Made by a program: the position numbers and the translations under genes. A stretch of 36,655 bases of DNA from NCBI GenBank assembly GCA_047639395.1, contig JBLINR010000002.1, positions 1-36,655 on the forward strand. Direction: 5' to 3'. The notes beneath the pieces are model-generated. The model had not been told where the DNA came from. It made no database searches and saw only the letters and a list, made by a program, of their open reading frames with translations. Source of the stretch: Candidatus Woesearchaeota archaeon. GTDB lineage: Archaea > Nanobdellota > Nanobdellia > Woesearchaeales > DATGWN01. Shown here in pieces: positions 1,934 through 31,697 of the stretch (its first letter is position 1; every line of letters starts with the position of its first letter).

Positions 1934-2187
1934 ACCCTCGACTCAAAGAGACGGGAATACACATCAGAGCAGTAACTGATTTAAAGAAGTTCGAGTTTAT
2001 TACACCAATGACGCCTTTACAATAATAGTTATTGGCGTCGAGCAAAAATTAACAAAAGATGCATAAAAACGCATGCTTTTGAAGGTTGCAAAACCTGGCA
2101 GAGAAAGAAAAAGTGTTTCCGATGAAACCGCAAGATTTGCGGGTTTAACGGCGTATACAATAAAAACAAGTATCACTTTCGTAAGGT

Positions 2188-5714: not shown

Positions 5715-6490
5715 AAAAAGAGGATGTAACGCGCATAGAGGCGATTCTTTATGCAGCTGGTGATAGAATTAGTGTACAACGTATGAGTGAGCTTACAGGC
5801 ATTTCTCATAACACTGTGATGGATATCTTAGAATCTTTAGAACAAAGATATAACACTGATGATACAACTGCGCTTTTCTTAACAACAGTTGGTGATGATT
5901 TTAAACTTACAGTTAAAAAAGAATTTTTAGGCTTAGTGGAGCAAATTGCACCTGATACTGAGTTATCTAAAGCAGTAATTGAAACACTATCCGTTCTTGC
6001 TTGGAAAAATCCAGTTATGCAGTCCGATATTGTGAAACTAAAATCGGCAAAAGTGTATGATCATATCGCTGAACTAAAAGAACGTGGATTTGTCGTAAAA
6101 GAAAAAGTTGGACGAAGCTTTGTCTTAAAATTAACACCTAAATTCTACTCTTATTTTGATGTATCCGGAAAAGATATGGATAATGCATTTAACAAATTCA
6201 AATACTCTGATTTAATTTCTCAAAAGAAAGTAGAAGATTTCCCTCAGGCGCAAAAACCTGTTGAAGAAAAGGTTGAAGAAGAACCAGAAGTTGAAGAAGA
6301 GCTGCAAGGCCCATCTATACCTGAAATCAAGGCTGAAGAGAAGAAAACACAAAAAGACTTCTTTGATAAGTTAGAAACTGGCTTACAAGCAGTACATGAT
6401 AATTCTAAGGATGTGCGTGACGAATTCTCAGCGCTTGTAAAGAAAGATCAGGATCAAGCTGAAGAAGATCCAACTGCACTAGAAGAATGA
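5711..6490 (+). CDS. scpB: Segregation and condensation protein B (ScpB) with acidic C-terminal tail
   Basis: N-terminal IEAILYAAGDRISVQRMSELTG is the ScpB signature. A second wHTH (VLAWKNPVMQSDIVKLKS...ELKERGFV) follows, then an E-rich tail. Confidence 0.8.
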   Translation: MKKEDVTRIEAILYAAGDRISVQRMSELTGISHNTVMDILESLEQRYNTDDTTALFLTTVGDDFKLTVKKEFLGLVEQIAPDTELSKAVIETLSVLAWKNPVMQSDIVKLKSAKVYDHIAELKERGFVVKEKVGRSFVLKLTPKFYSYFDVSGKDMDNAFNKFKYSDLISQKKVEDFPQAQKPVEEKVEEEPEVEEELQGPSIPEIKAEEKKTQKDFFDKLETGLQAVHDNSKDVRDEFSALVKKDQDQAEEDPTALEE

Positions 6491-6633
6491 TTCTGCTGCT
6501 TCGTTGTCCTGCTTGTAAACAAACTCAGCGATATCAATACACTGATTCTACATTAGATAAAAAAAGAAAACGTTGTGTCTATTGTGGAAAAAGTTTCTCA
6601 GTCAGGCCACAAATAGTAAAAAAAGAAAGTTAA
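6487..6633 (+). CDS. Small zinc-ribbon protein, 48 aa (below ORF-track cutoff)
   Basis: Hand translation: MILLLRCPACKQTQRYQYTDSTLDKKRKRCVYCGKSFSVRPQIVKKES. It has CxxC-x20-CxxC. The ATG overlaps the scpB stop as ATGA (6487-6490). Confidence 0.5.
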   Translation: MILLLRCPACKQTQRYQYTDSTLDKKRKRCVYCGKSFSVRPQIVKKES

Positions 6634-6719
6634 TTTTTCTAATTTCTTCACTAAGCTTATCTCTAACATACATGGGTGCGTATAGGTTACATTTCTATTT
6701 CAAGTTCAAACGGTTTTTT

Positions 6720-6747
6720 CTATTTCTTTCAATATTGAAAGAAATAG
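6720..6747. repeat. Perfect 28-bp palindrome ctatttctttcaatattgaaagaaatag
   Basis: It was verified to be its own reverse complement. It lies in the intergenic region between the zinc-ribbon gene and gyrA, preceded by T6 (6714-6719) and by a direct copy of ttctatttc. Confidence 0.8.
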
Positions 6748-6858
6748 CCTGTAAAACGATAAGTATTTAAAGAAACAGCCGTCTTTTTTACTTATGAATT
6801 CCGAGTGTTTTTACGACGAGAAATCTACAAAATAAAAGATTATATTTAGGGCAAAATT

Positions 6859-9800
6859 ATGAGTGAAGAATCAGAACCAAAAGGAGTAGTTTCTCAATTA
6901 ATTAACGATGAGATGACGCAGTCATTTATGGCATATGCTATGTCCGTTATTGTGAGCCGTGCTTTGCCTGATGTTCGAGACGGATTAAAACCAGTTCATA
7001 GAAGAATATTATATGCTATGCATGATATGGGAATAACTGCTACGAAGCCTTTTAAGAAATCTGCGCGTATTGTAGGGGAAGTGTTAGGTAAGTACCATCC
7101 ACACGGAGATACTGCTGTATACGAAACTATGGTGCGTATGGCGCAAGATTTTTCATTACGTTATTTACTAGTTGACGGTCAAGGTAACTTTGGTTCTATT
7201 GATGGTGATTCTGCGGCTGCTATGCGTTATTGTATTACGGGCGATTCACTAGTTTTAACAAAAGAAGGAATGCTTCCTATCGCTTCTTTGTCTAATACGG
7301 GGACTATTTTATCTTATGATGGTAAGAAAAACACCTATTCAAAATTCTTTAATTCTGGAAAACAGTCAATTACACGAATCACAACAAAACAAGGATACGC
7401 TTTAGCGGGATCTCAAAACCATCCTGTATTATGTTGGGTAAAAGATATGTTTGGAATTCCAAGAATTGAGTGGAAATTACTCTCCCAGGTTGAATCAGGA
7501 GATCACGTACTTTTACAACGTGGCCATAATTTATTTGCAACAACAGACAAAGTTTCACAATCACTAGCGTTTTCATTAGGCGGATTAGTATCTGAAGGAA
7601 GCTTTCATCAGGGAAAGATATTATTCTGTAATAAGGATAAACTGTATTATAATAAAGTCAAAAAAGGATTAGACTCTTTTGCAGCTTGCAAATATTATGA
7701 GCGAGAAATGAAGGGCGATTGCTTTGAATTTGATATGTATGTTCAATCTATCGTAAAAAAACTCATTGCTCTTGGGCTAAAACAGGTCAAATCTACAGAA
7801 AAAGAAATTCCATTCTCAGTATTACAATCATCAAAAAAAGTTATTCGTGCATTCTTACAAGGATTATTTGAAGGGGATGGTTCAATTGCCTATAAAGTTG
7901 ATAAACGACATGGTGGAAAATCACTAGAGTTGCGCTATCACAGCAAAAGTAAAGTATTAATCTCACAATTAAAAACAGTTCTTTTGAATTTTGGTATTGT
8001 TACAACAAAGCCGTATCGGGATAAAAGAAATGACTGTAATCAAATTACTATATCTGGTAATACGAACGTACAACGATTTACATCTGAAATTGGTTTCTTT
8101 TCAAAGAGAAAACAGTCTATTACACAAAAATCATTTACAACAAACACAGGTATGAGTAAAATTGACACAATTCCTTTTGTTAATGACTATTTACATCACA
8201 ATTATGCTTCTTTAAAGAAATACAATGTTGATAGGTATGAATCATTAACGAAAAACTCAGCAAAAGTAGCATCAGCAATAACAAAAACTGATTCGCAATT
8301 AGTCACATTCTTAGAAAAGCATCACTTTTTTATTGATACGGTTGATGAAATAAAAGAAGAAAAATCACAAACTGTGTATTCCATAAAAGTTGACAGCAAA
8401 TGTCATTCTTTTGTTGCTAACGGGTTTATTAATCATAACACGGAAGCCCGTATGACAAAGCTTGCTGAAGAAACACTAACTGATATTGAAAAAGAAACAG
8501 TTGACTTTAGATTAAACTTCGATGAATCACTTAAGGAGCCAATTGTATTACCGAGTAAAGTTCCAAGTTTACTTGTGAATGGGTCTGTTGGTATTGCTGT
8601 GGGAATGGCAACAAATATACCGCCACATAATCTACGTGAAATTGGAAACGCACTTATTGCACTTATTGATAATCCTGAAATTGAAGCAGTTGAATTGATT
8701 AACTATGTTCAAGGTCCAGATTTTCCAACTGGGGGAATCATTCATGGACGTCATGGGATTTATTCAGCATACAAAGACGGAACAGGAAAAGTTAAAGTTC
8801 GAGCAAAGACACATGTCGAAGAAGTACATGGACGCCAAGCAATTATCATTGATGAAGTTCCGTATCAAGTAAACAAAGCACAAACTATTGAAAATATTGC
8901 ATCCTTAGTAAAAGATAAAGTAATTGAAGGCGTTCATGATATTCGAGATGAATCGGATAGAACTGGTATGCGTGTTGTCTTTGAATTAAAACGAGATGCA
9001 AATATTGACGTTACATTAAACCAACTCTTTAAACATTCACGATTCCAAGTTACATGTGGTATTATTAACCTTTGTTTGGTTAACAATGTACCGAGAATTC
9101 TCAATTTAAAGGAAATGCTTGAGTATTTTCTCAAACACCGATTTGAAGTTGTTACACGAAGAACACAGTTTGAGTTAACAAAAGCACAAAACCGTGCACA
9201 TATATTAATTGGATTAAAGATTGCTATTGACAATTTGGATGAAGCAATTACTATTATCCGTGGTGCGAAAAATGGAAGTGAAGCAAAAGAAGCATTAATG
9301 CAAAGTTTCCCATTAGATGATATTCAATCTCAAGCAATTCTTGATATGAAGTTACAACGACTTACTGGCCTTGAGCGAGAAAAGATTGTTTCTGAGTATA
9401 ACGTAATTATTGACTTAATTAAAGAATTACAGGTTATTTTAGATTCACGAGAACGAAAACTTACTATAATTCGAGATGAAACAAAAGAACTCATTGACAA
9501 ATATGGTGATGAACGAAGAACACAAATTGTTGACGGCGCACTTGATGTGGATGATGAAGATTTCATTGCAGATGAAGATGATGTTGTAACAATCACACAT
9601 AGTGGCTACATTAAACGAATCAATGTTGATACGTATAAAGCCCAACGACGTGGTGGACGTGGTATTATTGCAACAACAACAAAAGAAGAAGACTTTGTTG
9701 AAAAGATATTTGTTGCACATTCAAAATCTTATCTATTATTCTTTACAAGCTTAGGACAAGTACATTGGTTAAAAGTTTGGCAGATTCCGGAAGGAAGTCG

Positions 9801-10575
9801 TCAATCAAAAGGAAAAGCAATTGTAAATCTTATTCCACTCCAAGAAGGAGAGGAAATCAGTGCTGTTATTCCTGTTAAAGAATTCACAGAAGGAAACTCA
9901 TTAATCTTAGCAACGAAGAAAGGTACAGTTAAGAAATCAAGTATACTTGACTTCTCAAGACCAAGACAAGGTGGAATCAGAGCAATTAGATTACTTGATG
10001 ACGATGTATTAATCGGCGCTGCATTAACAACTGGTTCTCAAGAAGTTATTCTTGCAACACGTAAAGGAAACGCAATTCGGTTTGATGAACGTAACGCACG
10101 AGAAATGGGACGTGTAAGTCAAGGAGTTCGAGGTATTCGACTTAATGAAGATGATCACGTAGTTGGTATGGTTATTGCAGATGATTCTCAAACACTTTTA
10201 ACAATTACTGAAAATGGATACGGAAAACGTACCAAAATTGAAGAATATCGTCTTATTAACCGTGGTGGGAAAGGAGTAATTAATATTTCTTGTAGTGAAC
10301 GAAATGGAAATGTTATTGCAGTTCTTCCGGTTGAAGATGAAACACATTTATTATTCATTTCCAAAAAAGGAATCACAATTAGAACAAGAGCTGATCAAAT
10401 ATCAGTCATTGGACGAAATACACAAGGTGTTCGATTAATGCGACTTGACCAGGAAGATTTAGTAGTGTCAGCAGCAGTAGTAGCACATGAGGATGTAGAA
10501 GATGATGAAGAATCCGAAGAACATACTGATGAACCTAGAGTTGATCAACCAGTACAAGATAGTAAACAAGCTTAA
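6859..10575 (+). CDS. gyrA: DNA gyrase subunit A, interrupted by an intein
   Basis: 1238 aa. It contains [28 protein letters not shown] and [16 protein letters not shown]|...|TEARM (the catalytic Tyr motif, split). C-terminal beta-pinwheel repeats and an acidic tail are present. Without the intein it is 835 aa, a normal GyrA length. Confidence 0.95.
7231..8439 (+). mobile_element. GyrA intein (403 aa) with LAGLIDADG homing-endonuclease domain
   Basis: It starts CITGDSLV (Cys1 codon 7231-7233) right after AAMRY and ends FINHN (Asn codon 8437-8439), followed by T of TEARM. Block B is SQNHPVL. The two LAGLIDADG motifs are [10 protein letters not shown] (about 7561-7605) and [12 protein letters not shown] (7852-7887). 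It is collinear with the Mycobacterium xenopi GyrA intein sequence as I recall it (CITGDALV...HN/TEARL). Confidence 0.9.
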
Positions 10576-14342: not shown

Positions 14343-14762
14343 TTACTCTACCTTCACCGCTGTGTCAAGTAGTTTTTGACCTGGTCCTGTGATTACTCGT
14401 CCCTTTCTGTTATCTACAATAACTTGTTTTACAAGTCCTGCAGCTTCTAGTTGCTGTAATGCTTTACGTGCAACGCTTCCAGATCCGGGCATGAATCGTG
14501 ATTTCTTATGTCCCCGTCGTTGACGTCCGCCATATTTTACTCGTAGTTTGTTTGTTCCAATTGGACCAAGAACTGCTACAGTTCGTAAAATTGCTGCACA
14601 TCGAACAAACCACCATTGTGGATCTTCGGGTTGTCGCTCCTTATGTACTCCTGTTTTTGCAAACGGAGCCCATTCAGGTGCCTTTATTTGATCGTTTTCT
14701 TTGAGCTTTCCAGCGGCTGCGCTGATAAGCTGTGTTGGGTTTATATCTCTAAAAGTTACCAT
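14343..14762 (-). CDS. rps19e: Ribosomal protein eS19
   Basis: APEWAPFAKTGVHKERQPEDPQWWFVRCAAILR...YGGRQRRGHKKSRFMPGSGSVARKALQQLEAAGLV matches archaeal S19e. GGAGGG SD at 14772-14777. Confidence 0.9.
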   Translation of the reverse strand: MVTFRDINPTQLISAAAGKLKENDQIKAPEWAPFAKTGVHKERQPEDPQWWFVRCAAILRTVAVLGPIGTNKLRVKYGGRQRRGHKKSRFMPGSGSVARKALQQLEAAGLVKQVIVDNRKGRVITGPGQKLLDTAVKVE

Positions 14763-19506: not shown

Positions 19507-20292
19507 CTACACTTGTGCAGATTTGCACAAGTATTCTTTTTTTATTTTTATATTATTATAACGTAATATCTGATATACTTTTTTATCTAGTGCTTTTCTA
19601 TCTATGTCTGTTAATACACATTTCTTATTATACAATTCAATGGGATGTCTTTTCAGATGAAATGTATCTTTGTTAGATCCATATCGAATAGCAAGTACGC
19701 TATGAAGTACAGATCCCTTTTCATTAAACACAAGAGATGGCAATACGTGAATTTTTTCTGATCTTTTTGATACAGGTTTAATTCTAGTATGTTTTTGCTG
19801 TAACGCTCTTCTAAATTTTCGCATTGGTTTGATAGGAACACCCATAAAAAACACTTGGCGCTCTAAGTTTTGATAATCTGTATTTGAATGAAACACATCA
19901 AACGCTGCATGTGAATGTCCCATTGCATGTACGCGTTTACCTTTGTCTTGCAGGTATTGTTGCGCTCTATGAAATGCACCTTCGTCAACATGAAACGATG
20001 AGCCTGTTATTCTTTGTTCTATGGGTAATACAAGATCATCAAGTGTTATTTCTGTTTCCTGATATGGTAACTCTTGGACTACTTGTTTTGTCTTGACATT
20101 TGCTCCATACAAAAATGCAACTTCATATGATTTTCCTGCTAAATCGCTGATTCGTTTACTAATATAATTGGATTGTAAAATAACTCTATAGTCAACACGA
20201 ACTCTGACTCTTTCTTGTTGTTGTACAAAATCAGTTTCTTCATGTTTTGATGTTAATAATGATTCAATAGTAAATGGTGTTTGTAAATTCAT
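19507..20292 (-). CDS. JAMM/MPN+ (JAB) metalloisopeptidase
   Basis: The motif is complete in track numbering: E68 (SYEVAFLYG) ... H137-S-H139-x7-S147-x2-D150 (HSHAAFDVFHSNTD, codons 19876-19917). ATG 20292 is preceded by GGAGG at 7 nt; the track start at 20325 is a TTG. Confidence 0.8.
   Translation of the reverse strand: MNLQTPFTIESLLTSKHEETDFVQQQERVRVRVDYRVILQSNYISKRISDLAGKSYEVAFLYGANVKTKQVVQELPYQETEITLDDLVLPIEQRITGSSFHVDEGAFHRAQQYLQDKGKRVHAMGHSHAAFDVFHSNTDYQNLERQVFFMGVPIKPMRKFRRALQQKHTRIKPVSKRSEKIHVLPSLVFNEKGSVLHSVLAIRYGSNKDTFHLKRHPIELYNKKCVLTDIDRKALDKKVYQILRYNNIKIKKEYLCKSAQV
19511..19549 (+). terminator. Hairpin plus T-tract terminator for dnaG, embedded in the 3' coding end of the JAB gene on the opposite strand
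   Basis: acttgtgca-gatt-tgcacaagt (9-bp perfect stem, 19511-19532) is followed by attc TTTTTTT a TTTTT (19537-19549). Confidence 0.45.
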
Positions 20293-20294
20293 AG

Positions 20295-21533
20295 TTAGGC
20301 CTCCAGCTTTTGTTTTTTTGTGCAATGATAAAAAAGGGGTTTTTCAAGAATACGACTTTGTACTGATAATTGTTGTTGTGCTACGTATCCCATCATTGCT
20401 CCCACAATCATGTTCGGAACAATGATTGACGGGTTTGCGACTCTTGCACAACTTGCATCTCTTGTTACTGTCTGCGGTTGTAAATCGCGTTGTAATGCAA
20501 TTGTTTTTGTAAATGGTGGTGTATATTGCGTGACCACACCTTTGTGCGTTGATACTGCACCTTCAATTACTTCTATTTTGTATTTTCTTGCAAAATCGGA
20601 AATGAGTATTCGACTATTAATAGAGTCAGTGGCACAAAAAATTGTGTCGTAGGGAACTCGTGTGTGTCTGCGTTCAAGTTGTTGAATTGATTGTTCTGTA
20701 AGATATTCGTTAATTGCACACCATGTTGTTTGTGGTGCTATTCTTCCCATGATACGACAAAGACTCTGTGCTTTTTGTTGACCAACTTCTGTTGCATACA
20801 AAAATTGACGATTAAGGTTTGTTGCTTCTACTGTATCTCCATCATACACATCAATTTGTTTGTAGCGACTAAATGCTACTTGTAATGCTAAATACGTTCC
20901 AATTCCTCCGGCACCAATGATTGCAACCTGTTTGGTTTTTTTTTTCGGGAGATGAATATGTCTTTTTGTGAATGCTCTCGGGCAAAGAGTTGTTTCTTTT
21001 TGAATGATTTCTTCGTTAGCTGTTAATGGTGCAAATCGTTTTCTTATCTCGTCACTTAACATTGCACCTAATAAGGGGGAGAGTAAACTTCCTAACTCAG
21101 TAGTTGGTTGCCGACTAACAACTGCTTTGTTTGTTTTTGTTGTGGTTGCATAATAAGATGCATGCACATTTTTTGCAAGTGTTGCAAATCTTTTATTTTT
21201 TTCTTCATGTTGATCGATGCACATGTGCGGGTTATCTATGTATTGTGTAAGTAAAGGTCCACGAATAAATTTCCAATTAAGCGGGTACCTTTTTTCAAAA
21301 ATATTCTTTGCTTGACGAACACGATACTGTGTTTTTTTATCACACAGATTTTGCAATAGTACTAGTGGTGTTTGTACATTGTCAATTACTGTGACGTCTT
21401 TTACTCCTAACCCTGCAAGACCCATTAGTAGGTATTCTGATGTGAGATTTAATCCATGAATAACAATTCTTGCTTCTTCAAGTTTCTTTTGACGTTCTAG
21501 TCCTAATGCACTTATATTTGCTTCGTATACCAT
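20295..21533 (-). CDS. E1-like ThiF/MoeB-family adenylyltransferase with an N-terminal degenerate (inactive-like) repeat
   Basis: The C-terminal half has VAIIGAGGIGTY (GAGGIG codons 20898-20915), DGDTVEATNLNRQFLY and Cys362 in RDASCARVANPSIIVPNMIVGAMMG (TGT 20448-20450). In the N-terminal half, ARIVIHGLNLTSEYLLMGLAGLGVKDVTVIDN and LGSLLSPLLGAMLSDEIRK echo the same fold without a Gly-rich loop. Confidence 0.85.
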   Translation of the reverse strand: MVYEANISALGLERQKKLEEARIVIHGLNLTSEYLLMGLAGLGVKDVTVIDNVQTPLVLLQNLCDKKTQYRVRQAKNIFEKRYPLNWKFIRGPLLTQYIDNPHMCIDQHEEKNKRFATLAKNVHASYYATTTKTNKAVVSRQPTTELGSLLSPLLGAMLSDEIRKRFAPLTANEEIIQKETTLCPRAFTKRHIHLPKKKTKQVAIIGAGGIGTYLALQVAFSRYKQIDVYDGDTVEATNLNRQFLYATEVGQQKAQSLCRIMGRIAPQTTWCAINEYLTEQSIQQLERRHTRVPYDTIFCATDSINSRILISDFARKYKIEVIEGAVSTHKGVVTQYTPPFTKTIALQRDLQPQTVTRDASCARVANPSIIVPNMIVGAMMGYVAQQQLSVQSRILEKPLFYHCTKKQKLEA

Positions 21534-22540
21534 TGTGTTTTATGTTGTAATGAACGTGGGTAATGAACAGGGGCGCAGTCTGGTGTATATCCAAACATGA
21601 GTACATTTTTTGCATAGTGCATTGCAGTTGCTAACTTAGTTGCAGTTTCTTCATTTTTTGGCATCCAAGAATTTTGATGTAAGTTAATTTTATTGAACCG
21701 AGAACTACCATTATAACAAATGGATCCATTTGAAAAAACAAAAAAATGTTCATATCCTTTTCGTGCTCTTGGAAATTGAGTAATAAGGCATTCATCTTGC
21801 GTATGTGTTATACGAAGAGTGAGTTGCGTTGCATCAAAATAATATTTTTGTGATTCTGCCTCCACTTCGTGTGCGGGTTGTTTTGTAGACAATACAATTG
21901 TTTGTTCGTCTATTTTTTTGAGTCTACAATTTTGATTATGCTGCGTGTGATCTCTATCGAATTCTTTTTGTGGTAATATCTTTTTTTGATAATGTTGATT
22001 CCAAAATGTTGTTTGTGGAATTCTGATGGGCTGTTTTGAAAAAAAGTGCCTACCAACTGAAAAATCAACATTTGGTCTTGGTTCTACTGGCACGAGAAGT
22101 TGTGTGTTTTTCTGTGTGAAATATGTGTTTGGTAAAATTATTTTTTGTTCTTTTGTTTGTTTTCCTTCTGGATTGGTTTGTGTTTCTTTTTTTGGCTGGT
22201 ACCACTGTAAATAAGCATCCGTGAGTTTTTTCCAAAAAGTATCAACCTGTTGTTCTTCTAAAAACCACTGTATATCTTCGCAGATCTCTGCTGGTTTTCC
22301 AAGTATAGTTGCAGTTGCATTTTTTTTGTTTATTGCAGGTACGTATACAGTATTATTAAACAGTACTGCTTGTTTTGTTTCTGCTAATAATTCTTGTAAT
22401 GGTGGTTTGGTTTGCGGCACAGGTGTTTTTTGACTAAAAATATGTGTTGGTTGTATACGCGGTTGCAGTTGTCGTACTACTCGGAAAGTTGTACGTGGCT
22501 GTATGTAAAATATTTGTCCCTGTACGATAGTTTGATTCAT
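21512..22540 (-). CDS. E2-like (UBC-fold) protein with an N-terminal region of about 220 aa of unknown function
   Basis: The C-terminal region reads YEH265FFVFSNGSIC275YNG...NSW292MP...LATAMHYAKNVL. This compares with the UBE2D active site [21 protein letters not shown] (from memory). The Cys codon is TGT at 21716-21718. The N-terminal part is Gln/Pro/Lys/Thr-rich with no recognisable motif. Confidence 0.6.
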   Translation of the reverse strand: MNQTIVQGQIFYIQPRTTFRVVRQLQPRIQPTHIFSQKTPVPQTKPPLQELLAETKQAVLFNNTVYVPAINKKNATATILGKPAEICEDIQWFLEEQQVDTFWKKLTDAYLQWYQPKKETQTNPEGKQTKEQKIILPNTYFTQKNTQLLVPVEPRPNVDFSVGRHFFSKQPIRIPQTTFWNQHYQKKILPQKEFDRDHTQHNQNCRLKKIDEQTIVLSTKQPAHEVEAESQKYYFDATQLTLRITHTQDECLITQFPRARKGYEHFFVFSNGSICYNGSSRFNKINLHQNSWMPKNEETATKLATAMHYAKNVLMFGYTPDCAPVHYPRSLQHKTQWYTKQI

Positions 22541-22552
22541 GTATGTTCCTAG

Positions 22553-22975
22553 TTACTTTCTCCCACCATCAAGTGTTGCAAGTAACTGTACTGCTATTGC
22601 TTTGTAGTCTGAATCTTGTGTATCTGTGTGAACAACACTTGCGTAATGTTGAGAAACTCTGTCTGTGAGTGATATTCTATATCCTGAATCAAATTGTCCA
22701 TCTCGTTTTGGAATCAGATGTAATGTTTGAGGTGTTGTTAATTCAGTTGCAATATAATCTGCAAGTCCACATTCATCAGGCGAGTAGTCGCTATTGTGTT
22801 CGTCCGCACCTGGGTCGAGTAAATATTGTACTACATCATCAAATGTTCCTTGGAGTAATTCTGGAGAAACAAGTTTACAAAGACCTGTTTGATCTTGTGT
22901 TGTACCATCTTCAAGTATTTTTGTTAGTGAGTCGTTAGGTGTATTTGTCACTAAAGTTATTTTTGTTGGTTTCAT
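22553..22975 (-). CDS. Ubiquitin-like (beta-grasp) modifier precursor ending in GG-RK
   Basis: 140 aa. The C-terminus is ...YKAIAVQLLATLDGGRK, with Gly137-Gly138 codons at 22562-22567 followed by only Arg-Lys and the stop. It is the first gene of the operon, 12 nt upstream of the E2-like gene. Confidence 0.55.
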   Translation of the reverse strand: MKPTKITLVTNTPNDSLTKILEDGTTQDQTGLCKLVSPELLQGTFDDVVQYLLDPGADEHNSDYSPDECGLADYIATELTTPQTLHLIPKRDGQFDSGYRISLTDRVSQHYASVVHTDTQDSDYKAIAVQLLATLDGGRK

Positions 22976-23124: not shown

Positions 23125-25794
23125 ATGAGTAAAGGGTTTTTGAAAAGAGGGCAGATATCTGCGTATATATTTGTAGGTGTCTTGATAGCAGCGATTGCTA
23201 CAATTGGTATTATAGCAAGTAATCCTCTAACTGTGGATGTAACTAATACTCTTGAAGATTTTGCTGTTACTGAGCAAGTTGATCAGGCATTTACACAACT
23301 TCGCGTTTATGTTGAACAATGTATGGAGCTAACTGCTCGAGAAGCAATTGTATTATTAGGTACTCAAGGCGGATATATTGAACAAGATTTCCGTGTAATT
23401 GAACAACTACCTACTGAATCTGAAGCAATTCCATTTGTTCCTGGTAGCGATTATGTTGTTCCTTACTGGTTATACATGTTTGACTCAAACTCTTGTTTAG
23501 AAAATTGTCAATTTAATTCACACCGTCCTCCACTTCGTATTGAGGAAGCTCCTGATTCTACTGTTGCAATTGAACGACAGCTTAACGAGTACATGCATGA
23601 AAAAGTTACTGATTGTTTAGGAAACTTTGAAGCAATGGAAGCTGTTGGGTATTCGGTTGTATCTCGAGGATTACCTATCTTTTCGACAAATTTTCGTCAA
23701 GATGATGTACAATTTCTTTTAAATTATCCATTAACAGTTACATCTGGTCAAACAAATGAAGATTTATCACAATTCTTAGTTGAAATTGATGTTCCGCTTA
23801 AACGAATGTATGACTATGCGTCAATGCTTGCATTTTTTGCATCTGATCGTAACTTTTTAGAAAATCACGCTACATCACTTATCTCAACATATTCTAGTTT
23901 AAATCCAGGACAACTTCCGCCAGTTGCAGGTTCTTCTTTTGAATTTGCAAATACGCGATATTGGGTAACGGGACAAGTACGAAAACAAATTACTGAAATG
24001 TTAAGTGTATATGTTCCCCAATTACAAGTATTATATTCTGCTAATTATCAACCATTTGATATTGATCTATATCCTGATTCTGCTTCAAAAGATCCACAAA
24101 TCATGGCAGGTATTGAACGATTATACAATAATATGGTATTACCTATTGATCCTGCTAATTTTATCAATGAGAATGAAACACGCTTTGATGAGTTTGCAGT
24201 TGACTTTGCGTATTATGAAGATTGGGCACCGTATGTGAGTTTGAATGGTGGACAAGAATTAATCCAACCGCACAGTCTCTCAATTGATTTAATTCCATTT
24301 TTCGGAATAAACCAATACGAAACATACTATGATGTGAGTTATCCTGTTCGAGTAAGTGTGTATGATAAAGAGGCATTAAACGGCGAAGGATTTTCATTTA
24401 ACTTTGCACTAGAAGCAAATATCCGAGATAATCGTCCATTTGAAACTGGAGATGTATTAGTTGGTTCTTTAACTCCGTTAGAGGGTCATCTAGATTACTT
24501 TTGTGAATATGATCAACGAAATAGTGGCTTAATTGAGTTTACTGCAATAAATGCGATGAGTGGGCAACCACTTGTAAATCAACCTGTAACTTTTAGTTGT
24601 GGAAATACAAAAGTTGTGCAATCAGCTGTTTTTAGTTCGAGTCCTGCTCCTGAATCTGTTGAAAGCTATTTCAAAACCTCACATCCTGATTCTGAAATTC
24701 GTGTGACATTTGCACATGAGACATTATCCTTTCAATCATTCAAAGTTCTTGTTGATGACTTATACGTAACACAGTCTGGTGTTATTGCGTTTAATGAAAA
24801 CTCACAAACAAGTTCATTTACTCAAGGATCAAAAGTACAAGTTGATCCGACTGACTTTACTGCTGTGGGAAACACAGGTGCGCAATTACTTAATGTGTTT
24901 GATGATGACGTGGACTTTGAAGTTCTTAACACTGAAACAGGTGTTGTAGACAATTACCAAGTTCGAAATGATCAAAATTCAATTATTTTTACAAAAGAAA
25001 AACATACTCCTGCAACAAGATCTTGTAGTATTGATGTAACTGATGAGACTGGTTACTTTTCAGGAAAATTCCCTATTTGTGCTGGCGGATATTTATCTTT
25101 ACCTAGCACTGAATACTTACAATCAACATTCTTATTATCAACAAATCTTAACAAACCTGTTGATCTAGGTGTATTAGAATTACAACCAAAAAGAAACCTT
25201 ACTGTGAAAGTTAAGAAAAATTTGGTTAAGAAGTCAGGTGGTCTGTATTTATTTGAAAAAGAGCCTGTTAACTTAGAACGTTTTGAAACTGCGTACGTTA
25301 CACTTGAACGTGTGAAACACAATCCGCTTGAAGCTGATTATAGTGCATTCTTTGTATTTAATGGAAGTGGCGGACCTGATCTTTTAATTGATGGTGTTCG
25401 TCAGAATACTGATGCTGATGTAACAATTCAAGTTGCACCTGGAAATTATACGGTGACTATGATTCTTATACTGGATAATGAAGTGACAATACCTGCTCAA
25501 CCAATTTATGATGATGATGATGATCTTGTTACTACTATTGCTCCTATTACTTTACCGCAATCGCCATCAGGGAAATATGATTTGGATGAAACAACAGGGT
25601 ACTTATCATTAAGTGCTGCAGATCTTGACAGTGGGAAAGCTCTTGAGTTTTATGCAATCGGACAAGACCTTCTAAAAACATGTACAAAGGGATGTACTGC
25701 GAAAGACTTAAATATTGAAATATTCGTGGATCACTATGTGATAGAACACTTTAATACATTATATCCGAAATTTGTAGGTGTAAGCAATGAATAA
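23125..25794 (+). CDS. Large (889 aa) extracellular protein with class III (type IV pilin-like) signal peptide
   Basis: The N-terminus MSKGFLKRG-QISAYIFVGVLIAAIATIGIIAS has a charged n-region, KRG/Q, then a hydrophobic helix, like archaeal prepilin-peptidase substrates. The rest has no recognisable domain. Confidence 0.7.
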   Translation: MSKGFLKRGQISAYIFVGVLIAAIATIGIIASNPLTVDVTNTLEDFAVTEQVDQAFTQLRVYVEQCMELTAREAIVLLGTQGGYIEQDFRVIEQLPTESEAIPFVPGSDYVVPYWLYMFDSNSCLENCQFNSHRPPLRIEEAPDSTVAIERQLNEYMHEKVTDCLGNFEAMEAVGYSVVSRGLPIFSTNFRQDDVQFLLNYPLTVTSGQTNEDLSQFLVEIDVPLKRMYDYASMLAFFASDRNFLENHATSLISTYSSLNPGQLPPVAGSSFEFANTRYWVTGQVRKQITEMLSVYVPQLQVLYSANYQPFDIDLYPDSASKDPQIMAGIERLYNNMVLPIDPANFINENETRFDEFAVDFAYYEDWAPYVSLNGGQELIQPHSLSIDLIPFFGINQYETYYDVSYPVRVSVYDKEALNGEGFSFNFALEANIRDNRPFETGDVLVGSLTPLEGHLDYFCEYDQRNSGLIEFTAINAMSGQPLVNQPVTFSCGNTKVVQSAVFSSSPAPESVESYFKTSHPDSEIRVTFAHETLSFQSFKVLVDDLYVTQSGVIAFNENSQTSSFTQGSKVQVDPTDFTAVGNTGAQLLNVFDDDVDFEVLNTETGVVDNYQVRNDQNSIIFTKEKHTPATRSCSIDVTDETGYFSGKFPICAGGYLSLPSTEYLQSTFLLSTNLNKPVDLGVLELQPKRNLTVKVKKNLVKKSGGLYLFEKEPVNLERFETAYVTLERVKHNPLEADYSAFFVFNGSGGPDLLIDGVRQNTDADVTIQVAPGNYTVTMILILDNEVTIPAQPIYDDDDDLVTTIAPITLPQSPSGKYDLDETTGYLSLSAADLDSGKALEFYAIGQDLLKTCTKGCTAKDLNIEIFVDHYVIEHFNTLYPKFVGVSNE

Positions 25795-28700
25795 GAAGTT
25801 TATTGCAATATTCATTATTACTCTATTTATGACTCTTCCATTCTCATTTGCATTTAGCCTTAATGCTGTTTTCGTTGAGGGGGATATGAGTCCTCATGTT
25901 AATGAAATTAGAGGAGATGAAGACTTTACATACCGTGCGATACTTATTGCTGAACCAAACGATAAGGACACATCTGGAAATATTAAACCTAACTTTGTGT
26001 CTGCAATACCGAGTAGTCTCTATATCGGTAACAAAAATTCTGGGCGGGCTGAATTCTTCACATCTTGTGAAATCATAAATGATACTGGTAGTGTTGAATG
26101 TTTATTAGAAGAATCTGCTTTGACTTCAATTCAATCTCCATTAATACAATACTATACACGTTTTGAAAGACGACGTCGTATTGGATCTAACTTGCATACT
26201 GAAACCCAAGTTTTTAATGGTACATATATTGTTGATGATCGTGTGCCGGAATTAGAGATTATTGATACACAACAAGTATTAGATACATTGTCTATCACAG
26301 TAAAAATCACGGACAAACTTCGTCCAACATTCGAGGATCAACACGAAGGTTGTACTCCTATTTATACAGTAAAAGCATATATTCCTAGAACTGGACGAGA
26401 AACAATTAATACTGACGTTGAATTACAATCAAAAGGATGTTCCTTTGAACTTGTACTAGATGTAGATGTTTCTGAAATGTCAACTGGTGTTCAGAATGTG
26501 TGTGTTGAAGCAACTGATGGTGTTGACTTAACAGGTAAAATGTGTAAAAATGTACAAATTGATAAAGATGCACCGTTAATTCGAGAAATTGCAATTGCAA
26601 CTGAAGATAATAATAAAATTGAATTTATTCAAGAGTATGATGAAGGATTTATTCGTTTTAGAAAAACAAGTGATACTAATCTAAATACATTAACTATTTC
26701 CTTAAACGGTGTTCCGTTAAACATTCTTGAATGTCGTGAACGAAACATTTGTGTAACTACTGAATTCACACTTACACAAGGCACACATACAATTGAACTC
26801 TATGCTGAAGATACACGTGGTAATGTTGCTGATACACAAGTTATACAAACAATTGTTACTGACACTGCTCAACCTGCACTTGTTTCATTAGAATCAGATG
26901 TTGTTATTGATGGTGTTTCATTTATTACTCGAGGACAAAGTAAAATTGTTGCAACATTTGATGAAACACAGAGTGGGTTTCATAAACGAATTGGTTCTAA
27001 TTTAGTTGAACAAGTCCTTTTGCAACAGCGACATAGTGGTATTATACGACATGCAAACACGTGTACACAATCAAACTCACAATGGATTTGTACTTGGACA
27101 CAATTTCCAGTTCTTAAGACTGATCCTGATGGTCACTTTGATCTTATTCTTGTAGCTCGTGATGATACGGGTAACATCATGACAGGTGAAGCTGAGCATT
27201 TATTTATGTTGGATACGACGTTTCCTCAAGTTGATGCTACAGGTGTAACTACTGTTGGTGTTACTGGCACAGGTGTTGTTCAAAATGAAATTGTTACTGG
27301 TGATTCAGCTATTCGTGTTACTGTTCCAGTTACTGATGCAAGTAATATGAGGATTGTTGGTGATTTTACATCAGTTGGTGGTGGTTCTAATGTAACTGGT
27401 TCTTGTACTGATACGTCATGTACTGTTACTTCGAATACAATATTTTTGAGTGGCTTACAATCAGTGACTGTTCGAATCTTTGACTCATTTAATCGAGACA
27501 CACAAGTTACAACTGATGAAATCGAAGTTCTTAAATCAGGAGATCCTGAATTTTTGGATCAAGAATTCTTTTCACATTCATTAACAGTATCACCTTCACA
27601 ATTTGAAAAGACAACAAGTCGTTTCAAAAATCAAAAAGCGTTTGCCTCTATTAAAATTACATCTGATCAAGGTGCAAAAGCAACTACTTCTCGTCTATTA
27701 AGTTGTCGAGGACGAGATGGTGATCATGCAAATGATGATTCTTTCTTTAGCTCAGTAAATCAAATAACAACTGCTGACCCGAGTGAAACACTATTACAAT
27801 TAGAATTAAAAAGTGCTGATATTAATCAAGAAGAAATTCGTATGATTTGTGTTATTGGTGTGAGTGGTTCTGTTGATGGAACATTTATTCCTGAAGAACG
27901 TGAAGAAGTACAATTGGACTTTGGCACATATGCTTTTTCTATGGGTGAAATTGGTGAGAATCATGAAGCTGAAGTAGAAGCTGCAATTTCTGCTGCAAAT
28001 GATGGTATTATCAACACAATTGCAAAACTTGAAAAGTTTGTGAAAATCGCAGAGACACTTTGTCGATTACTGAATTTGTTTATGACTGTTCGAGATTTAC
28101 TTAAGACGCTAGGAGTTGGATTTAAATTCCTTGGTCAAGCATTAAGTACAAATCCATTTACTGCGGGCGCAGGTCAAGCATTATTACAAGCTGGTGCACG
28201 TATGTGTGGTATTGAGCAAACAGGAAATGAAGTTGTACGAAAAACATTTGTTGAAAGAATTCAAGGTGTATGTCAATTCATTACATGTGAGCGAAGTTTA
28301 ACTGGTGCAATCATGGGTTCATTTGGAGATGAAGGATTTATGGCTGGCAGTGAAAGTGGCGTTCTTGATAGAATTGGAACACGTTCCAATTTCCAAAATG
28401 ATGATGGGAATGCGAGAACTATTGAATATAATGACGGTGGACAAGATTCTGGTGCAAGTACTACTAAATCATTACTAACTGACGATTCATTTATCCCGCG
28501 GGATAATTTATTCTGGAATATTATTGATTTATGTATTCCTGGTATTATTAAAAATTTGAATAGATTACGACAACTTAAATGTCAATACGCAGTGTGTGTT
28601 CGAGATGATGTTCCACAAGGTGTACCTAAGAGTGCATGTGATGCAGCATTAGCGTATGGTGAGTGTAGATTCATTTACCAAACTATGTTTTCAGCATTCC

Positions 28701-28957
28701 CGCCATTTGCGTTTTTCGACTTTATGATGAATAAGTTGATTGCGTTAATCGCAAATCCATTTGCATTAGCTGGCTTTATTATTCAAAAAGTTATTTGTCA
28801 AGCTACTTGTGAATCGCCTGAGGGTTTTACATATAATGCGTGTGTTTCATTAACGTTGGCAAGTGAACTTGCAGCATCCATTCAACATATTATGAAATTT
28901 ATTAAAAGTTTAAGTGATAAGGAGTTCCAAAATGTCAACTACTGTGATCAGTTATAG
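25787..28957 (+). CDS. Large (1056 aa) secreted protein with Ig-like repeat signatures and a Cys-rich hydrophobic C-terminal region
   Basis: Sec-type signal MNKKFIAIFIITLFMTLPFSFAFS. Recurrent domain-boundary motifs are DDRVPELEI, DKDAPLIREI, DTAQPALVSL and DTTFPQVDA. The start overlaps the upstream stop by 8 nt. Confidence 0.7.
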   Translation: MNKKFIAIFIITLFMTLPFSFAFSLNAVFVEGDMSPHVNEIRGDEDFTYRAILIAEPNDKDTSGNIKPNFVSAIPSSLYIGNKNSGRAEFFTSCEIINDTGSVECLLEESALTSIQSPLIQYYTRFERRRRIGSNLHTETQVFNGTYIVDDRVPELEIIDTQQVLDTLSITVKITDKLRPTFEDQHEGCTPIYTVKAYIPRTGRETINTDVELQSKGCSFELVLDVDVSEMSTGVQNVCVEATDGVDLTGKMCKNVQIDKDAPLIREIAIATEDNNKIEFIQEYDEGFIRFRKTSDTNLNTLTISLNGVPLNILECRERNICVTTEFTLTQGTHTIELYAEDTRGNVADTQVIQTIVTDTAQPALVSLESDVVIDGVSFITRGQSKIVATFDETQSGFHKRIGSNLVEQVLLQQRHSGIIRHANTCTQSNSQWICTWTQFPVLKTDPDGHFDLILVARDDTGNIMTGEAEHLFMLDTTFPQVDATGVTTVGVTGTGVVQNEIVTGDSAIRVTVPVTDASNMRIVGDFTSVGGGSNVTGSCTDTSCTVTSNTIFLSGLQSVTVRIFDSFNRDTQVTTDEIEVLKSGDPEFLDQEFFSHSLTVSPSQFEKTTSRFKNQKAFASIKITSDQGAKATTSRLLSCRGRDGDHANDDSFFSSVNQITTADPSETLLQLELKSADINQEEIRMICVIGVSGSVDGTFIPEEREEVQLDFGTYAFSMGEIGENHEAEVEAAISAANDGIINTIAKLEKFVKIAETLCRLLNLFMTVRDLLKTLGVGFKFLGQALSTNPFTAGAGQALLQAGARMCGIEQTGNEVVRKTFVERIQGVCQFITCERSLTGAIMGSFGDEGFMAGSESGVLDRIGTRSNFQNDDGNARTIEYNDGGQDSGASTTKSLLTDDSFIPRDNLFWNIIDLCIPGIIKNLNRLRQLKCQYAVCVRDDVPQGVPKSACDAALAYGECRFIYQTMFSAFPPFAFFDFMMNKLIALIANPFALAGFIIQKVICQATCESPEGFTYNACVSLTLASELAASIQHIMKFIKSLSDKEFQNVNYCDQL

Positions 28958-31697
28958 GATACTTGTATGCATGCTTTGTGTTATGCTCTTCGTGCCTATG
29001 GTAAGTGCGGAGACTGTTGTATTGAGTTCATCACAAGATACACTTATTCAATACGTTGCTAGTGATGGTCAAAAAGTTTCGACTTTATTAGAACCGATTA
29101 GTATTGGTGGTACTAGGGTAACAACTGTCGTTGGATCTTCTGCACCTACTAGTAGAAATTCTGGAAACTCTTTTGAAGACGAAGTCAGTTATCTTGTGTT
29201 AGCGGCTAATTTGTATAGTTCTCAACTGACACTTTATGATTATTCGGATCCTGATCTTCCTGCACTGACTGCTGGAGTGGTTTTAACAGTTGAAGAATAC
29301 TACCTACCAATTACCGTTAGTGGATATGATTTAAGTGTTTCTCAGAATGGTCGGAGTTCGAGAGTGGCAACTGGTCCTCCTCCTGCTCCTGCTACAACAC
29401 CTACTGCTCCTAGCACAACACCAGCAACTGCTGACACACCTGCAACTGCTGGGACATTAACAGATGATGACGTAACTGCTGCAAATAATTGGTTTGCTTC
29501 TAAAAGCGGATCTCAAACGCAATCGGGATCACCTCAAGCTAGCTCTTCAACAGGAAATATGAAACTTATTGGTGAAGATAAAATTGGCGTTGTTGTAGGC
29601 TCTGAAAAATATTTTTTTGGAAAAGATGATGATGGGAAATTAATTGGTGCTATTCGTACTGATAATGCAGTTGTTGATATTCCTTCTGAAATTTTGGCAC
29701 AAGCTGGGATTACGAGTTTGTCTTCGTTTAAAGAGAAGGATGGTAAGATTCTAGTTGGGACAGAAACACTTTCTGAGATCACGGCTACTTCTATCACACT
29801 CGTTCCTGCTGATGGCAAAACACACACACTAGCGTATGCCAATCAAGCACAAGGTATCATTAGTGACACACCTGCTGGTAGTGAACAACCATCAACATTC
29901 ATTTTCACACAATCACGAGGATTGCGATTAGAACTGCGTGGTGCTGCTGCTGGTAAAGATTCAGACGACAAATCAGTTCAATATAAATTAACTCAAAAAA
30001 CCGGTGATTCTATTAGAACTGTGACAGTGACTACTGAGGATGCTAAACAATTAACTGAGAATATAGACAAACTCCAAGCGCTTTTCCAACATGCGATAGC
30101 GCAAGGTATTGATATTAATGCTGAAACTTTAAGACAAGCTATTGACAAAACAGATAAGGATGGAAATCCTATCACTTCCATCAGTTTTGGGGATTCTACT
30201 AGATTATTTTTCGGTACGACTGCGACGGTGAGTGTTCACACATTTGAATCTGGTGATTTATCTGAAGCAACCGTGGTTAGAGAAGATGGAACTACAACTA
30301 AGTATACTTTGCAAGGTGTGAGTTTAACGAAAGAAGGTAAAGATGATAAGGGCAAACCTATCACTCTTGACACAAGTGCTGATTTTGTTAAAGCAATAAC
30401 AAACAATGATGATAGCAAACTGACAAACTATCTCGTTAAACAATATGAATCACAAGTTGGGGATAAACCGTTTAAGACTCCGCTTAGAATTGAAACTATT
30501 GAATTTGATATAACTGGGAAACAAACATATGCTGATTATATTGCTTTAGAACCTGGGGACAAAGATACAGTTCAATATATTCACGAAACACAAACTACGA
30601 AGAAAAACATTATCACAGTTGTTCAAGTAACTGGTTCATTAAAACAAGATTCGGCTGATAAAAGTAAACTGATTTATTCTCTTAATGAACAAAGTACTGT
30701 TGCATACGAATTAGAAATTACTGGTAATAAAAAAACAGGAACTATACTTACTGTGCTTGATGATCAGGGCAGTCCAACTGCGAGTAAATTCAAAGTTAAA
30801 AACGGACTTCTAGGTGCTAAATTAACTTGTATTGATAAAACAGACTGTAATAAAGAATCACGTGCATTCAAAGAAGCAGAAAAAGCATTCAAAGAATCAC
30901 AATTAACAAACAGAAAATTAACTATTCAAGATGCAAGAAAACGTTATGAAGTATACAGAGACTCCGTAACGGGGTACAAAGCATTATCTATTGAGAATTA
31001 TCAAGTAACTGACTTTATGCGTGATATGCAATGGGCAGAAAACTTTGGGGCACTCTCTAGCCTATTTGTTGGTTCAGAGAGATTTGCTAAATGGGAATCA
31101 CAAGTAAAAGAACTTATACCAACAACTGATAGGTGGGTAGAAACGATGTGTAAAGCAAACTTAAAACCTGACGGTCCACAAAACACTGCATTTGTTAAAC
31201 TACCTGACGGGAGTGTATCTGCTGCTGCAACTACAGGTGGTGAGTGTTCATCTCCAGTTACTGCATATGATGTGACTGAACGATTATACAAATTTAGTGC
31301 GTATGTTGCAAACCCACAAGGTGTTCCTGAAGAAACTCCCTTGAGATTCGATATTTATATTCAAGACGATTCTGGTGAAAGACATGCATTGTTTGATGAT
31401 GCATTCGCACTTGATCCTGGTGGAGTACTAAGTTTAACTGGTCCTGATGCGGTAAGTAGATTTAGTGATAAACTATTTACACAAATCTGTATTGAGTTTG
31501 AAAATCCTCCTGAAATTTTTGAAGATAATACATTATGTAATGCTATTACCTGTCGTGAAATTCCTGAAGGTGGCTATACAGCTCCTCCTTTACTAGAACA
31601 AGATAATCCATTTAACGAAGATACTGTTAGTGGTGACGAAGCAATTGAATCACAACCAGGTGGCGCTCCAAGTATTAATGAGGATATATTCGGATGA
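28932..31697 (+). CDS. Large (921 aa) secreted protein with a Pro/Thr/Ala linker
   Basis: AAGGAG at 28919-28924 lies 7 nt upstream of ATG 28932; the track start at 28914 is a GTG. The signal peptide is MSTTVISYRILVCMLCVMLFVPMVSA. The linker is GPPPAPATTPTAPSTTPATADTPATAGT (about 29367-29456). Confidence 0.7.
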   Translation: MSTTVISYRILVCMLCVMLFVPMVSAETVVLSSSQDTLIQYVASDGQKVSTLLEPISIGGTRVTTVVGSSAPTSRNSGNSFEDEVSYLVLAANLYSSQLTLYDYSDPDLPALTAGVVLTVEEYYLPITVSGYDLSVSQNGRSSRVATGPPPAPATTPTAPSTTPATADTPATAGTLTDDDVTAANNWFASKSGSQTQSGSPQASSSTGNMKLIGEDKIGVVVGSEKYFFGKDDDGKLIGAIRTDNAVVDIPSEILAQAGITSLSSFKEKDGKILVGTETLSEITATSITLVPADGKTHTLAYANQAQGIISDTPAGSEQPSTFIFTQSRGLRLELRGAAAGKDSDDKSVQYKLTQKTGDSIRTVTVTTEDAKQLTENIDKLQALFQHAIAQGIDINAETLRQAIDKTDKDGNPITSISFGDSTRLFFGTTATVSVHTFESGDLSEATVVREDGTTTKYTLQGVSLTKEGKDDKGKPITLDTSADFVKAITNNDDSKLTNYLVKQYESQVGDKPFKTPLRIETIEFDITGKQTYADYIALEPGDKDTVQYIHETQTTKKNIITVVQVTGSLKQDSADKSKLIYSLNEQSTVAYELEITGNKKTGTILTVLDDQGSPTASKFKVKNGLLGAKLTCIDKTDCNKESRAFKEAEKAFKESQLTNRKLTIQDARKRYEVYRDSVTGYKALSIENYQVTDFMRDMQWAENFGALSSLFVGSERFAKWESQVKELIPTTDRWVETMCKANLKPDGPQNTAFVKLPDGSVSAAATTGGECSSPVTAYDVTERLYKFSAYVANPQGVPEETPLRFDIYIQDDSGERHALFDDAFALDPGGVLSLTGPDAVSRFSDKLFTQICIEFENPPEIFEDNTLCNAITCREIPEGGYTAPPLLEQDNPFNEDTVSGDEAIESQPGGAPSINEDIFG

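Follow-up and report, generated by a model that had tools for sequence, protein, structure and literature searches.

A minimal single-chain E1-like enzyme with a predicted inactive–active domain pair in a DPANN archaeon

Relation to described E1 enzymes

Until the work on Bil systems in 2023-24, the E1 pseudo-dimer, in which an inactive adenylation domain (IAD) is paired with an active one (AAD), was seen as a eukaryotic hallmark, and all the remaining E1-like enzymes of prokaryotes had been reported to be homodimers (PMC10557695). BilD is the sole prokaryotic IAD-AAD E1 in the literature examined, and its authors state that the other bacterial E1-like proteins known so far all form homodimers (PMC10557695). 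Here, we analyse an E1-like enzyme encoded in a 36,655-nucleotide stretch of DNA from a Candidatus Woesearchaeota archaeon (contig JBLINR010000002.1 of assembly GCA_047639395.1, positions 1 to 36,655), referred to throughout as the window. The protein, hereafter E1, has 412 residues and is very probably a minimal single-chain E1 of a Woesearchaeota/Pacearchaeota (DPANN) type, in which a degenerate N-terminal ThiF-fold domain packs onto an intact C-terminal adenylation domain. The IAD-AAD architecture itself is already known; what appears to be new is an archaeal, minimal version of it with the cysteine in a loop.

BilD (PDB 8tyz; PMC10557695) shares the IAD-AAD architecture with E1 and likewise does without FCCH, coiled-coil and UFD. 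Its gene, too, lies with those of an E2, a JAB peptidase and a ubiquitin-like protein (Ubl) whose tail is removable; in the window, the E2 and Ubl counterparts are candidates. There are differences. BilD is a 501-residue chain with a mobile helical Cys domain of ~80 residues in its crossover loop, whereas the loop of the 412-residue E1 spans 34 residues and holds the cysteine itself. BilD possesses an arginine finger (Arg9) and a zinc site, whereas E1 has Ala5 and no CxxC. Lastly, BilD belongs to a defence locus in a bacterial host, whereas E1 has an archaeal host and a housekeeping setting.

The eukaryotic E1s (Uba1, UBA6 and UBA7, and the pairs NAE1-UBA3 and SAE1-SAE2) have in common with E1 the IAD/AAD pseudo-dimer with one active site, a feature that is predicted here. 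They are its best structural matches, and a profile of its N half matches their IAD regions. Their FCCH/SCCH Cys domain and UFD are absent from E1, which is under half their size and has its cysteine in the crossover loop, as in non-canonical E1s and unlike canonical eukaryotic E1s. ThiF, MoeB, Uba4 and UBA5 (PF00899) share the AAD motifs, the short crossover loop with a reactive cysteine and, at the family level, the CxxC...CxC zinc site, but these are single-domain homodimers with two active sites, whereas the degenerate partner of E1 is fused in cis.

Among archaea, the E1-like protein of Caldiarchaeum subterraneum and Asgard lineages (CSUB_C1476; PMC3082918, PMC5654768) is likewise encoded in an operon with a C-terminally extended Ubl, an E2-like protein and a JAMM/Rpn11 peptidase. 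The Caldiarchaeum enzyme is described as resembling UBA2/UBA3; it bears Cys-domain insertion helices at about aa 197-239, and its operon includes a RING E3 (PMC3082918, PMC5654768). By that description it differs from the present family, in which an IAD forms the N-terminal part, the Cys insertion is lacking and a RING gene is not recognisable. Cap2 and BubCD are homodimeric and carry an E2 or a peptidase fused at the N terminus; the N half of E1 is neither. An E2 identity of the N half, as was once annotated for the N half of BilD, was considered and rejected: the N half is ThiF-like, and the PADLOC models for CBASS Cap2, a true E2-E1 fusion, match the adenylation part alone (aa ~199-330).

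Sequence motifs and family of the archaeal E1

In the open reading frame listing, the E1 interval is a single frame of 412 codons plus a stop with an ATG start, and the plus-strand frame contains stops throughout. Its parts are as follows.

20295..21533, minus strand: E1-like Ubl-activating enzyme, 412 aa, one chain consisting of IAD, linker and AAD
21024..21533, minus strand: IAD with a degenerate ThiF fold, aa 1-170
20940..21023, minus strand: interdomain linker, aa 171-198, modelled less confidently than the domains; AlphaFold2 confidence (pLDDT) blocks of 71/71 at aa 181-200 and only one short strand, at 181-183
20298..20939, minus strand: AAD with the complete ThiF/E1 catalytic set, aa 199-412
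20898..20915, minus strand: Gly-rich ATP loop GAGGIG, aa 207-212, with G207 and G209 invariant across the family
20805..20843, minus strand: DGDTVEATNLNRQ, aa 231-243, the Mg/ATP-binding Asp residues and the NxNRQ motif
20448..20450, minus strand: Cys362, candidate thioester cysteine in a short flexible crossover loop, invariant in 90/90 sequences
21519..21521, minus strand: Ala5, in the column of the IAD arginine finger (YxRQ; here Y3-E-A-N6) of the 90-sequence alignment

Pfam ThiF matches E1 with E=5.4e-38 and 130.9 bits (cut-off 28.1), its best stretch covering aa 199-382, so that the protein belongs to the ThiF/MoeB family (PF00899) above the curated threshold. Matches of the C half to PDB entries (phmmer) include Uba4, UBA3, Uba1, SAE2, MoeB and ThiF. 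The NCBIfam equivalog models all score far below their own cut-offs; thus, E1 is none of the named ThiF/MoeB/UbaA orthologues. Further along the C half, IVPNMIVGAMMG occupies aa 371-382. In the N half, LGLERQKK...VTVIDN spans aa 10-52 with HGLNLTS at aa 26-32, where GxGxxG would be expected, and ELGSLLSPLLGAMLSDEIRK lies at aa 146-165. The IAD has neither DxD nor NxNRQ. A prediction made earlier from the window's sequence (the original prediction) had assigned to the C-terminal part a ThiF signature of GAGGIG, DxDxVExTNLNRQ and Cys362, and each of these is found where it was claimed, the Pfam match covering the same part. Its account of the N half, in which HGLNLTS stands in for the Gly-rich loop and NLNRQ is missing, also agrees with the motif positions.

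An exhaustive profile search at E<=1e-30 recovered 365 cluster representatives. Among the 150 best that were listed, most have a length of about 330-650 aa and align with the whole profile as a single unbroken match. The family counts given here refer to an alignment of 90 sequences with members of 328-575 aa; a smaller profile was built from 7 sequences, and the Pfam test of N halves used 34. The family profile matches SAE2/UBA2 best in the PDB (E=2.4e-36), followed by the Uba1 AAD, ThiF and UBA3, with MoeB also present. All named members come from DPANN archaea (Woesearchaeota, Pacearchaeota, Nanoarchaeota or Nanobdellota) and bear no annotation beyond ‘ThiF family adenylyltransferase’ or ‘hypothetical protein’. 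A literature search for a DPANN E1/E2/Ubl system found no description, which is not proof of absence. E1 belongs to a large and apparently undescribed family of DPANN archaea. Three relatives from loci labelled ‘uncultured Methanosarcinales archaeon’ (L004, L005 and L009) match over aa 145-381 at ~30% identity, the other full-length relatives all being DPANN; mis-binning could account for this, as could a wider distribution.

Loss of active-site residues from one domain only

The two halves differ sharply in what they have kept. Eleven residues of the AAD are invariant in 90/90 sequences: G207, G209, D231, D233, N239, R242, Q243, K254, D303, C362 and N374. GxGxxG is found in 89/90 C halves against 6/90 N halves, and NxxRQ in 90/90 against 2/90. 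One domain is therefore stripped of the nucleotide-binding and catalytic residues that the other retains. With a degenerate and an intact domain in one polypeptide, there would be one active site per chain. The retention of the AAD motifs, the loss of the active-site motifs from the N half and the conservation of the gene neighbourhood are direct observations.

The N half has conserved features of its own, namely Gly27, Gly43 and a helix motif D-E-x-R-K in which E162, R164 and K165 are nearly invariant. This helix (DEIRK, aa 161-165) is the best-conserved element of the IAD and aligns with the helix that follows the crossover loop in the C half. In ThiF/MoeB enzymes, too, the crossover loop leads into a helix of this kind, with the pattern E-x-x-K.

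Homology of the two halves

The relationship between the halves emerges from family profiles. When the N halves of the 90 sequences were compared with the C halves, hhalign returned a probability of 99.6% and E=2.9e-24 over 153 columns that begin at the first strand and end with the last helix; the same comparison with 7 sequences gave E=1.2e-5. In the PDB, a profile built solely from N halves matches Uba4, ThiF and MoeB at E=5.5e-18 to 6.7e-17, and the IAD regions of eukaryotic E1s at 1e-9 to 1e-11 (UBA7 aa 14-152, UBA6, UBA1 12-159, NAE1 11-113 and SAE1 14-158). Of 34 N halves, 27 match Pfam ThiF unaided. For E1 itself, the N-half match to Pfam ThiF covers aa 4-52 with E=1.5e-4 and 21.4 bits, under the 28.1-bit cut-off, and phmmer against the PDB gives E ~0.2 at best (SAE1 and a malic-enzyme Rossmann domain), which is not significant.

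Together, the profile-profile comparison, the N-half profile and the Pfam matches of the N halves place two ThiF-fold adenylation-type domains in one chain, and these sequence profiles show both halves of E1 to be homologous to ThiF. Because the N-half profile is closer to the active ThiF, MoeB and Uba4 than to the eukaryotic IADs, these matches do not demonstrate a specific common origin of the IAD.

Predicted structure

An AlphaFold2 model of E1 from the 90-sequence alignment has a mean pLDDT of 89 and a predicted template modelling score (pTM) of 0.91. Its secondary structure elements (E, strand; H, helix) are as follows.

N half: E22-26, H30-42, E46-51, H71-82, E88-91, E104-107, H114-122, E126-133, E136-140, loop, H152-167
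C half: E202-206, H210-219, E226-230, H254-265, E270-274, H280-289, E297-300, H305-317, E321-327, E331-337, loop, H371-389

In the model, the strand and helix order of the C half is repeated in the N half, H280-289 being the sole element without a counterpart. Foldseek searches of the PDB rank single-chain canonical E1s first, with E of 1e-15 to 1e-17. Structural similarity was expressed as TMq, which is normalised to 412 residues and for a lone 214-residue domain has a ceiling of ~0.52. UBA7/UBE1L (8oif_A) reaches a TMq of 0.75, Uba1 and UBA6 reach 0.68-0.72, and the bacterial BilD (8tyz_A) reaches 0.66 (TMt 0.55) with 11% identity in the structural alignment. Since a TMq of up to 0.75 exceeds the single-domain ceiling, both domains of the predicted model are placed like the IAD and AAD of known E1s.

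The pTM of 0.91 and the global TMq of 0.66-0.75 thus predict a MoeB/ThiF-like intramolecular packing of the two halves. In such a model, one polypeptide would reproduce the two-fold arrangement found in the MoeB/ThiF homodimer and in IAD/AAD pairs (Uba1, NAE1-UBA3 and BilD). The IAD would then act as a structural stand-in for the second ThiF/MoeB protomer and, in most relatives, would donate the arginine finger too.

Two parts of canonical E1s are missing. The crossover segment, from the last strand to the next helix, is only 34 aa long in E1 and 23-47 aa across the family, so there is no inserted Cys domain, and no separate SCCH/CYS domain was found in the crossover loop. In the AlphaFold2 model this loop contains one short helix (345-348), and its pLDDT falls below 50 at 361-364. 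Nor is there a C-terminal UFD, as the chain stops 23 residues past the last AAD helix (H371-389, strand 400-403, end at 412). Cys362 sits directly in this low-confidence, presumably mobile loop; judged by position, this would be the arrangement of ThiF, MoeB, Uba4 and UBA5.

A conserved operon with a candidate modifier, an E2-like protein and a JAB peptidase

On the minus strand, the genes for the modifier, the E2-like protein, E1 and JAB follow one another in this order as a tightly packed operon, with E1 in third place. The neighbours of E1 are as follows.

22553..22975, minus strand: candidate ubiquitin-like modifier precursor, 140 aa, ending in ...LDGG-RK, with Gly137-Gly138 at nt 22562-22567
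21512..22540, minus strand: candidate E2-like conjugating enzyme, 342 aa, with HFFVFSNGSIC at aa 265-275 (nt 21716-21748)
19507..20325, minus strand: JAB/MPN+ (JAMM) metallopeptidase, 272 aa from a TTG or 261 aa from an ATG at 20292

The E2-like gene and the start of E1 overlap by 22 nt, and the ATG of the JAB gene lies 2 nt past the E1 stop. A related-locus search was seeded on GAGGIG via the 7-sequence alignment, and most of the loci returned were those of ordinary bacterial ThiF/MoeB. Seven relative loci were examined, six of them complete around E1 and one (L083) cut just upstream of it. The closest, from a Woesearchaeota metagenome-assembled genome (L003), encodes an E1 with 30% identity over aa 1-410 in the same operon. 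The core of small protein, E2-like protein and E1 is present in the window and in 6/6 complete loci. A JAB gene stands beside it in the window and in 4/6 complete loci, as well as in L083, where E1 and the downstream JAB are visible.

Modifier counterparts of 110-140 aa lie near E1 in 6/6 complete loci, and the one column invariant among them is a C-terminal Gly with 0-8 residues after it. Modifiers with a tail after this Gly (RK, AYDSL, YQPYRLSS, Y and NENF; window, L001, L003, L084 and L087) are accompanied by a JAB gene. The two that end exactly at ...VG (L085 3843-4178 and L086 3694-4095) have no JAB gene beside the cassette. The lack of an adjacent JAB gene where the modifier is tail-less is consistent with a role in trimming the tail, but little weight can be put on two loci. 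The JAB gene of the window contains the JAMM motif HSHAAFDVFHSNTD (HxHx7Sx2D) at nt 19876-19917. It matches Pfam Prok-JAB at E=9.3e-4, under the cut-off, and the counterpart in L083 does so above the cut-off (E=8.3e-7, 29.3 bits).

The E2-like counterparts, of 270-380 aa, lie directly upstream of E1 in 6/6 complete loci. A word-indexed search for homologues of the E2-like protein returned itself alone, and the 7-sequence profile added two. Only M1, Y233, H265 and C275 are invariant in the alignment from seven loci. In an hhalign comparison with human UBE2D2, only the His...Cys motif aligned, with the active site HPNINSNGSIC (P=0.019, 17 columns).

One locus from a GC-richer organism (L001) has two extra genes after E1, at 6339-7625 (428 aa) and 7622-8782 (386 aa). 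Their products contain paired Cys motifs (CTEC...C..PYC and CTAC...C) and match nothing in Pfam; a part as E3-like or zinc-finger partners is conceivable.

Proposed mechanism

These features suggest a reaction sequence of the kind used in ubiquitin-like conjugation. The adjacent JAB peptidase would first trim RK after the Gly-Gly of the 140-aa modifier. The AAD would then bind ATP/Mg and adenylate the C-terminal Gly138 so exposed, after which Cys362, on its short mobile crossover loop, would accept the modifier as a thioester. From there, the modifier would be handed to Cys275 of the E2-like neighbour and on to targets. The JAB enzyme might additionally reverse conjugation. The monomeric state of E1, Ubl activation, the Cys362 thioester, E2 transfer and the existence of biological targets are all what we infer from the features described above.

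A broader proposal can be put forward only tentatively, and we regard it as rather doubtful: that the window holds the first example to be noticed of a Ubl-conjugation cassette spread across DPANN archaea and not described before, and that no pseudo-dimeric E1 known is smaller than those of this family (328-575 aa among the 90 aligned sequences), which would combine an IAD and an AAD with a ThiF-style loop cysteine.

Alternative explanations

Several results speak against a conjugating pseudo-dimeric E1. The repeat is not detectable in the E1 sequence alone, as a Smith-Waterman alignment of aa 1-190 with aa 191-412 scores 29, equalled or bettered by 1227/2000 shuffles (z=-0.3); the best local alignment is still the expected first strand-helix-strand block. 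The pseudo-dimer packing, including the oligomeric state, is itself a prediction. The arginine finger (YxRQ), which IADs normally donate to the ATP site of the AAD, is absent from E1, where its column, aligned with YDRQ of SAE1, holds Ala5 (Y-E-A-N); this column is Arg in 67/90 relatives and Ala in 5/90 including E1. The CxxC zinc cysteines, present in 66-67/90 relatives, are also absent, their places taken by Thr344 and Leu347. With Ala5 and no CxxC, E1 could be weakened or differently wired. Neither the E2-like protein nor the candidate modifier has a Pfam match or a meaningful PDB profile match, so both are assigned by motif, size and synteny only, and the AlphaFold2 model of the E2-like protein (3 sequences) has a pLDDT of 30. 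The YxRQ arginine is also gone in the nearest relatives of E1 (P0002, P0004 and P0083).

The original prediction had described the N-terminal part as a degenerate repeat of the C-terminal one; the family profiles bear this out (E=2.9e-24), whereas self-alignment of the single sequence does not (z=-0.3). The N-terminal 170 aa, which might have proved unrelated to ThiF, came out ThiF-like in the N-half profile against the PDB and in the strand and helix order of the AlphaFold2 model. The compact IAD-AAD architecture that it proposed gains support from the homology of the halves, the model and the global match to single-chain E1s, though it is not fully canonical given the absence of Cys domain and UFD. 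The statement in the original prediction that the bacterial Bil E1 combines an IAD and an AAD is correct (PMC10557695).

Other roles and arrangements can be weighed against the same data. The two-domain E1 might activate the small GG protein chiefly for sulfur transfer, as a ThiS/MoaD/Urm1/SAMP-like thiocarboxylate serving, for example, tRNA thiolation, and not for conjugation. The AAD sequence is indeed equally near ThiF, MoeB, Uba4 and the conjugating E1s, the catalytic cysteine is carried, like that of ThiF, MoeB and Uba4, by a short crossover loop, and the E2-like and Ubl proteins have no fold support (no PDB profile match; the low pLDDT of the E2-like model). Yet neither a rhodanese domain nor a sulfurtransferase gene occurs in the cassette, in the window or in the relative loci, and the protein with the invariant His...Cys pair always stands between modifier and E1. 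Moreover, JAB is usually adjacent and the modifier tail often removable, features typical of conjugation cassettes such as Bil (PMC10557695). A sulfur-carrier role is thus unlikely. A different arrangement of the protein itself would have a ThiF-derived N domain lying off the dimer interface, with the C-terminal domains homodimerising (two active sites) and the N domain docking E2 or Ubl. The confident relative placement of the domains by AlphaFold2 (pTM 0.91) makes this very improbable, as do the superposition of the whole model on the IAD and AAD of Uba1, UBA7, UBA6 and BilD (TMq up to 0.75) and the YxRQ arginine, which is sensible only in a pseudo-dimer and kept by 67/90 relatives. What can be said for it is that, with the arginine finger missing, the N domain of E1 does not obviously complete the active site, and that without a UFD the E2 must be recruited by another surface.

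The cassette could also be the archaeal counterpart of the bacterial Bil anti-virus system, in which case E1 would serve defence and not housekeeping. It has the same four gene types as BilABCD, with sizes, order and motifs that fit (E2 and Ubl being candidates by motif, size and synteny), the order Ubl-E2-JAB-E1 in L001 is identical, and BilD is the only described prokaryotic IAD-AAD E1. At the sequence level, E1 is not a member of the BilD family, the likeness being confined to the fold: BilD (8tyz) is absent from the phmmer matches of E1 at E<=0.01 and is not among the best 60 profile matches. The archaeal E1 also lacks a Cys domain. No CapH/CapP-type regulator, helix-turn-helix or M78 gene adjoins the cassette, its neighbours being housekeeping genes (ribosomal proteins, DnaG, RIO kinase and tRNA synthetases in the window and its relatives) or large secreted proteins, and the PADLOC matches are restricted to the generic adenylation part of the Cap2 models. 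Hence, we regard a Bil-like defence role as quite unlikely. A minimal single-chain E1 with a degenerate IAD and an intact AAD accords best with the evidence as a whole.

Significance

If the broader, rather doubtful proposal made above is correct, E1 would be a living intermediate between the homodimeric ThiF/MoeB and the canonical E1s. Duplication and inactivation would then have preceded the gain of the Cys domain and UFD, or would have arisen independently of the eukaryotic and Bil lineages. A large archaeal family with the IAD-AAD solution in a much smaller protein would mean that a cis-fused inactive partner is commoner than thought, being either old or recurrent. The family would also offer a minimal scaffold of ~330-450 residues for asking how an inactive protomer supports one active site, and nature already provides members that have or lack the arginine finger and the zinc site. 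Finally, it would hint at a protein-modification system of DPANN archaea that has yet to be studied. Because the four-gene cassette is retained beside core information-processing genes in very reduced DPANN genomes, it is likely to be important.

Genomic context

The window, at 35% GC, comes from an archaeal chromosome. Among its other genes are those for ribosomal proteins L31e and S19e, a RIO kinase, an RPA-like OB-fold protein, a DnaG-type Toprim protein, a KH protein, ScpB and an intein-containing GyrA. The last of these, DNA gyrase subunit A (6859-10575, plus strand, 1238 aa), is split by an intein with a LAGLIDADG homing-endonuclease domain; its Pfam matches are DNA_topoisoIV, DNA_gyraseA_C, LAGLIDADG_3 (aa 328-412) and Intein_splicing (aa 159-527).

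Three consecutive large genes on the plus strand are divergent from the Ubl operon (23125-25794, 889 aa; 25787-28957, 1056 aa; 28914-31697, 927 aa). Their products have essentially no Pfam match, and the 889-aa protein has an N-terminal hydrophobic segment. Judged by eye, the closest relative locus (L003) has a 939-aa counterpart in the same divergent position beside the operon (832-3651, minus strand), and there may be a conserved linkage of the cassette with surface or secreted proteins. The gene for S19e is found a few kb or less from the cassette in the window (14343-14762, minus strand) and again in a Nanobdellota relative (L084, 7799-8251), possibly as conserved housekeeping synteny.

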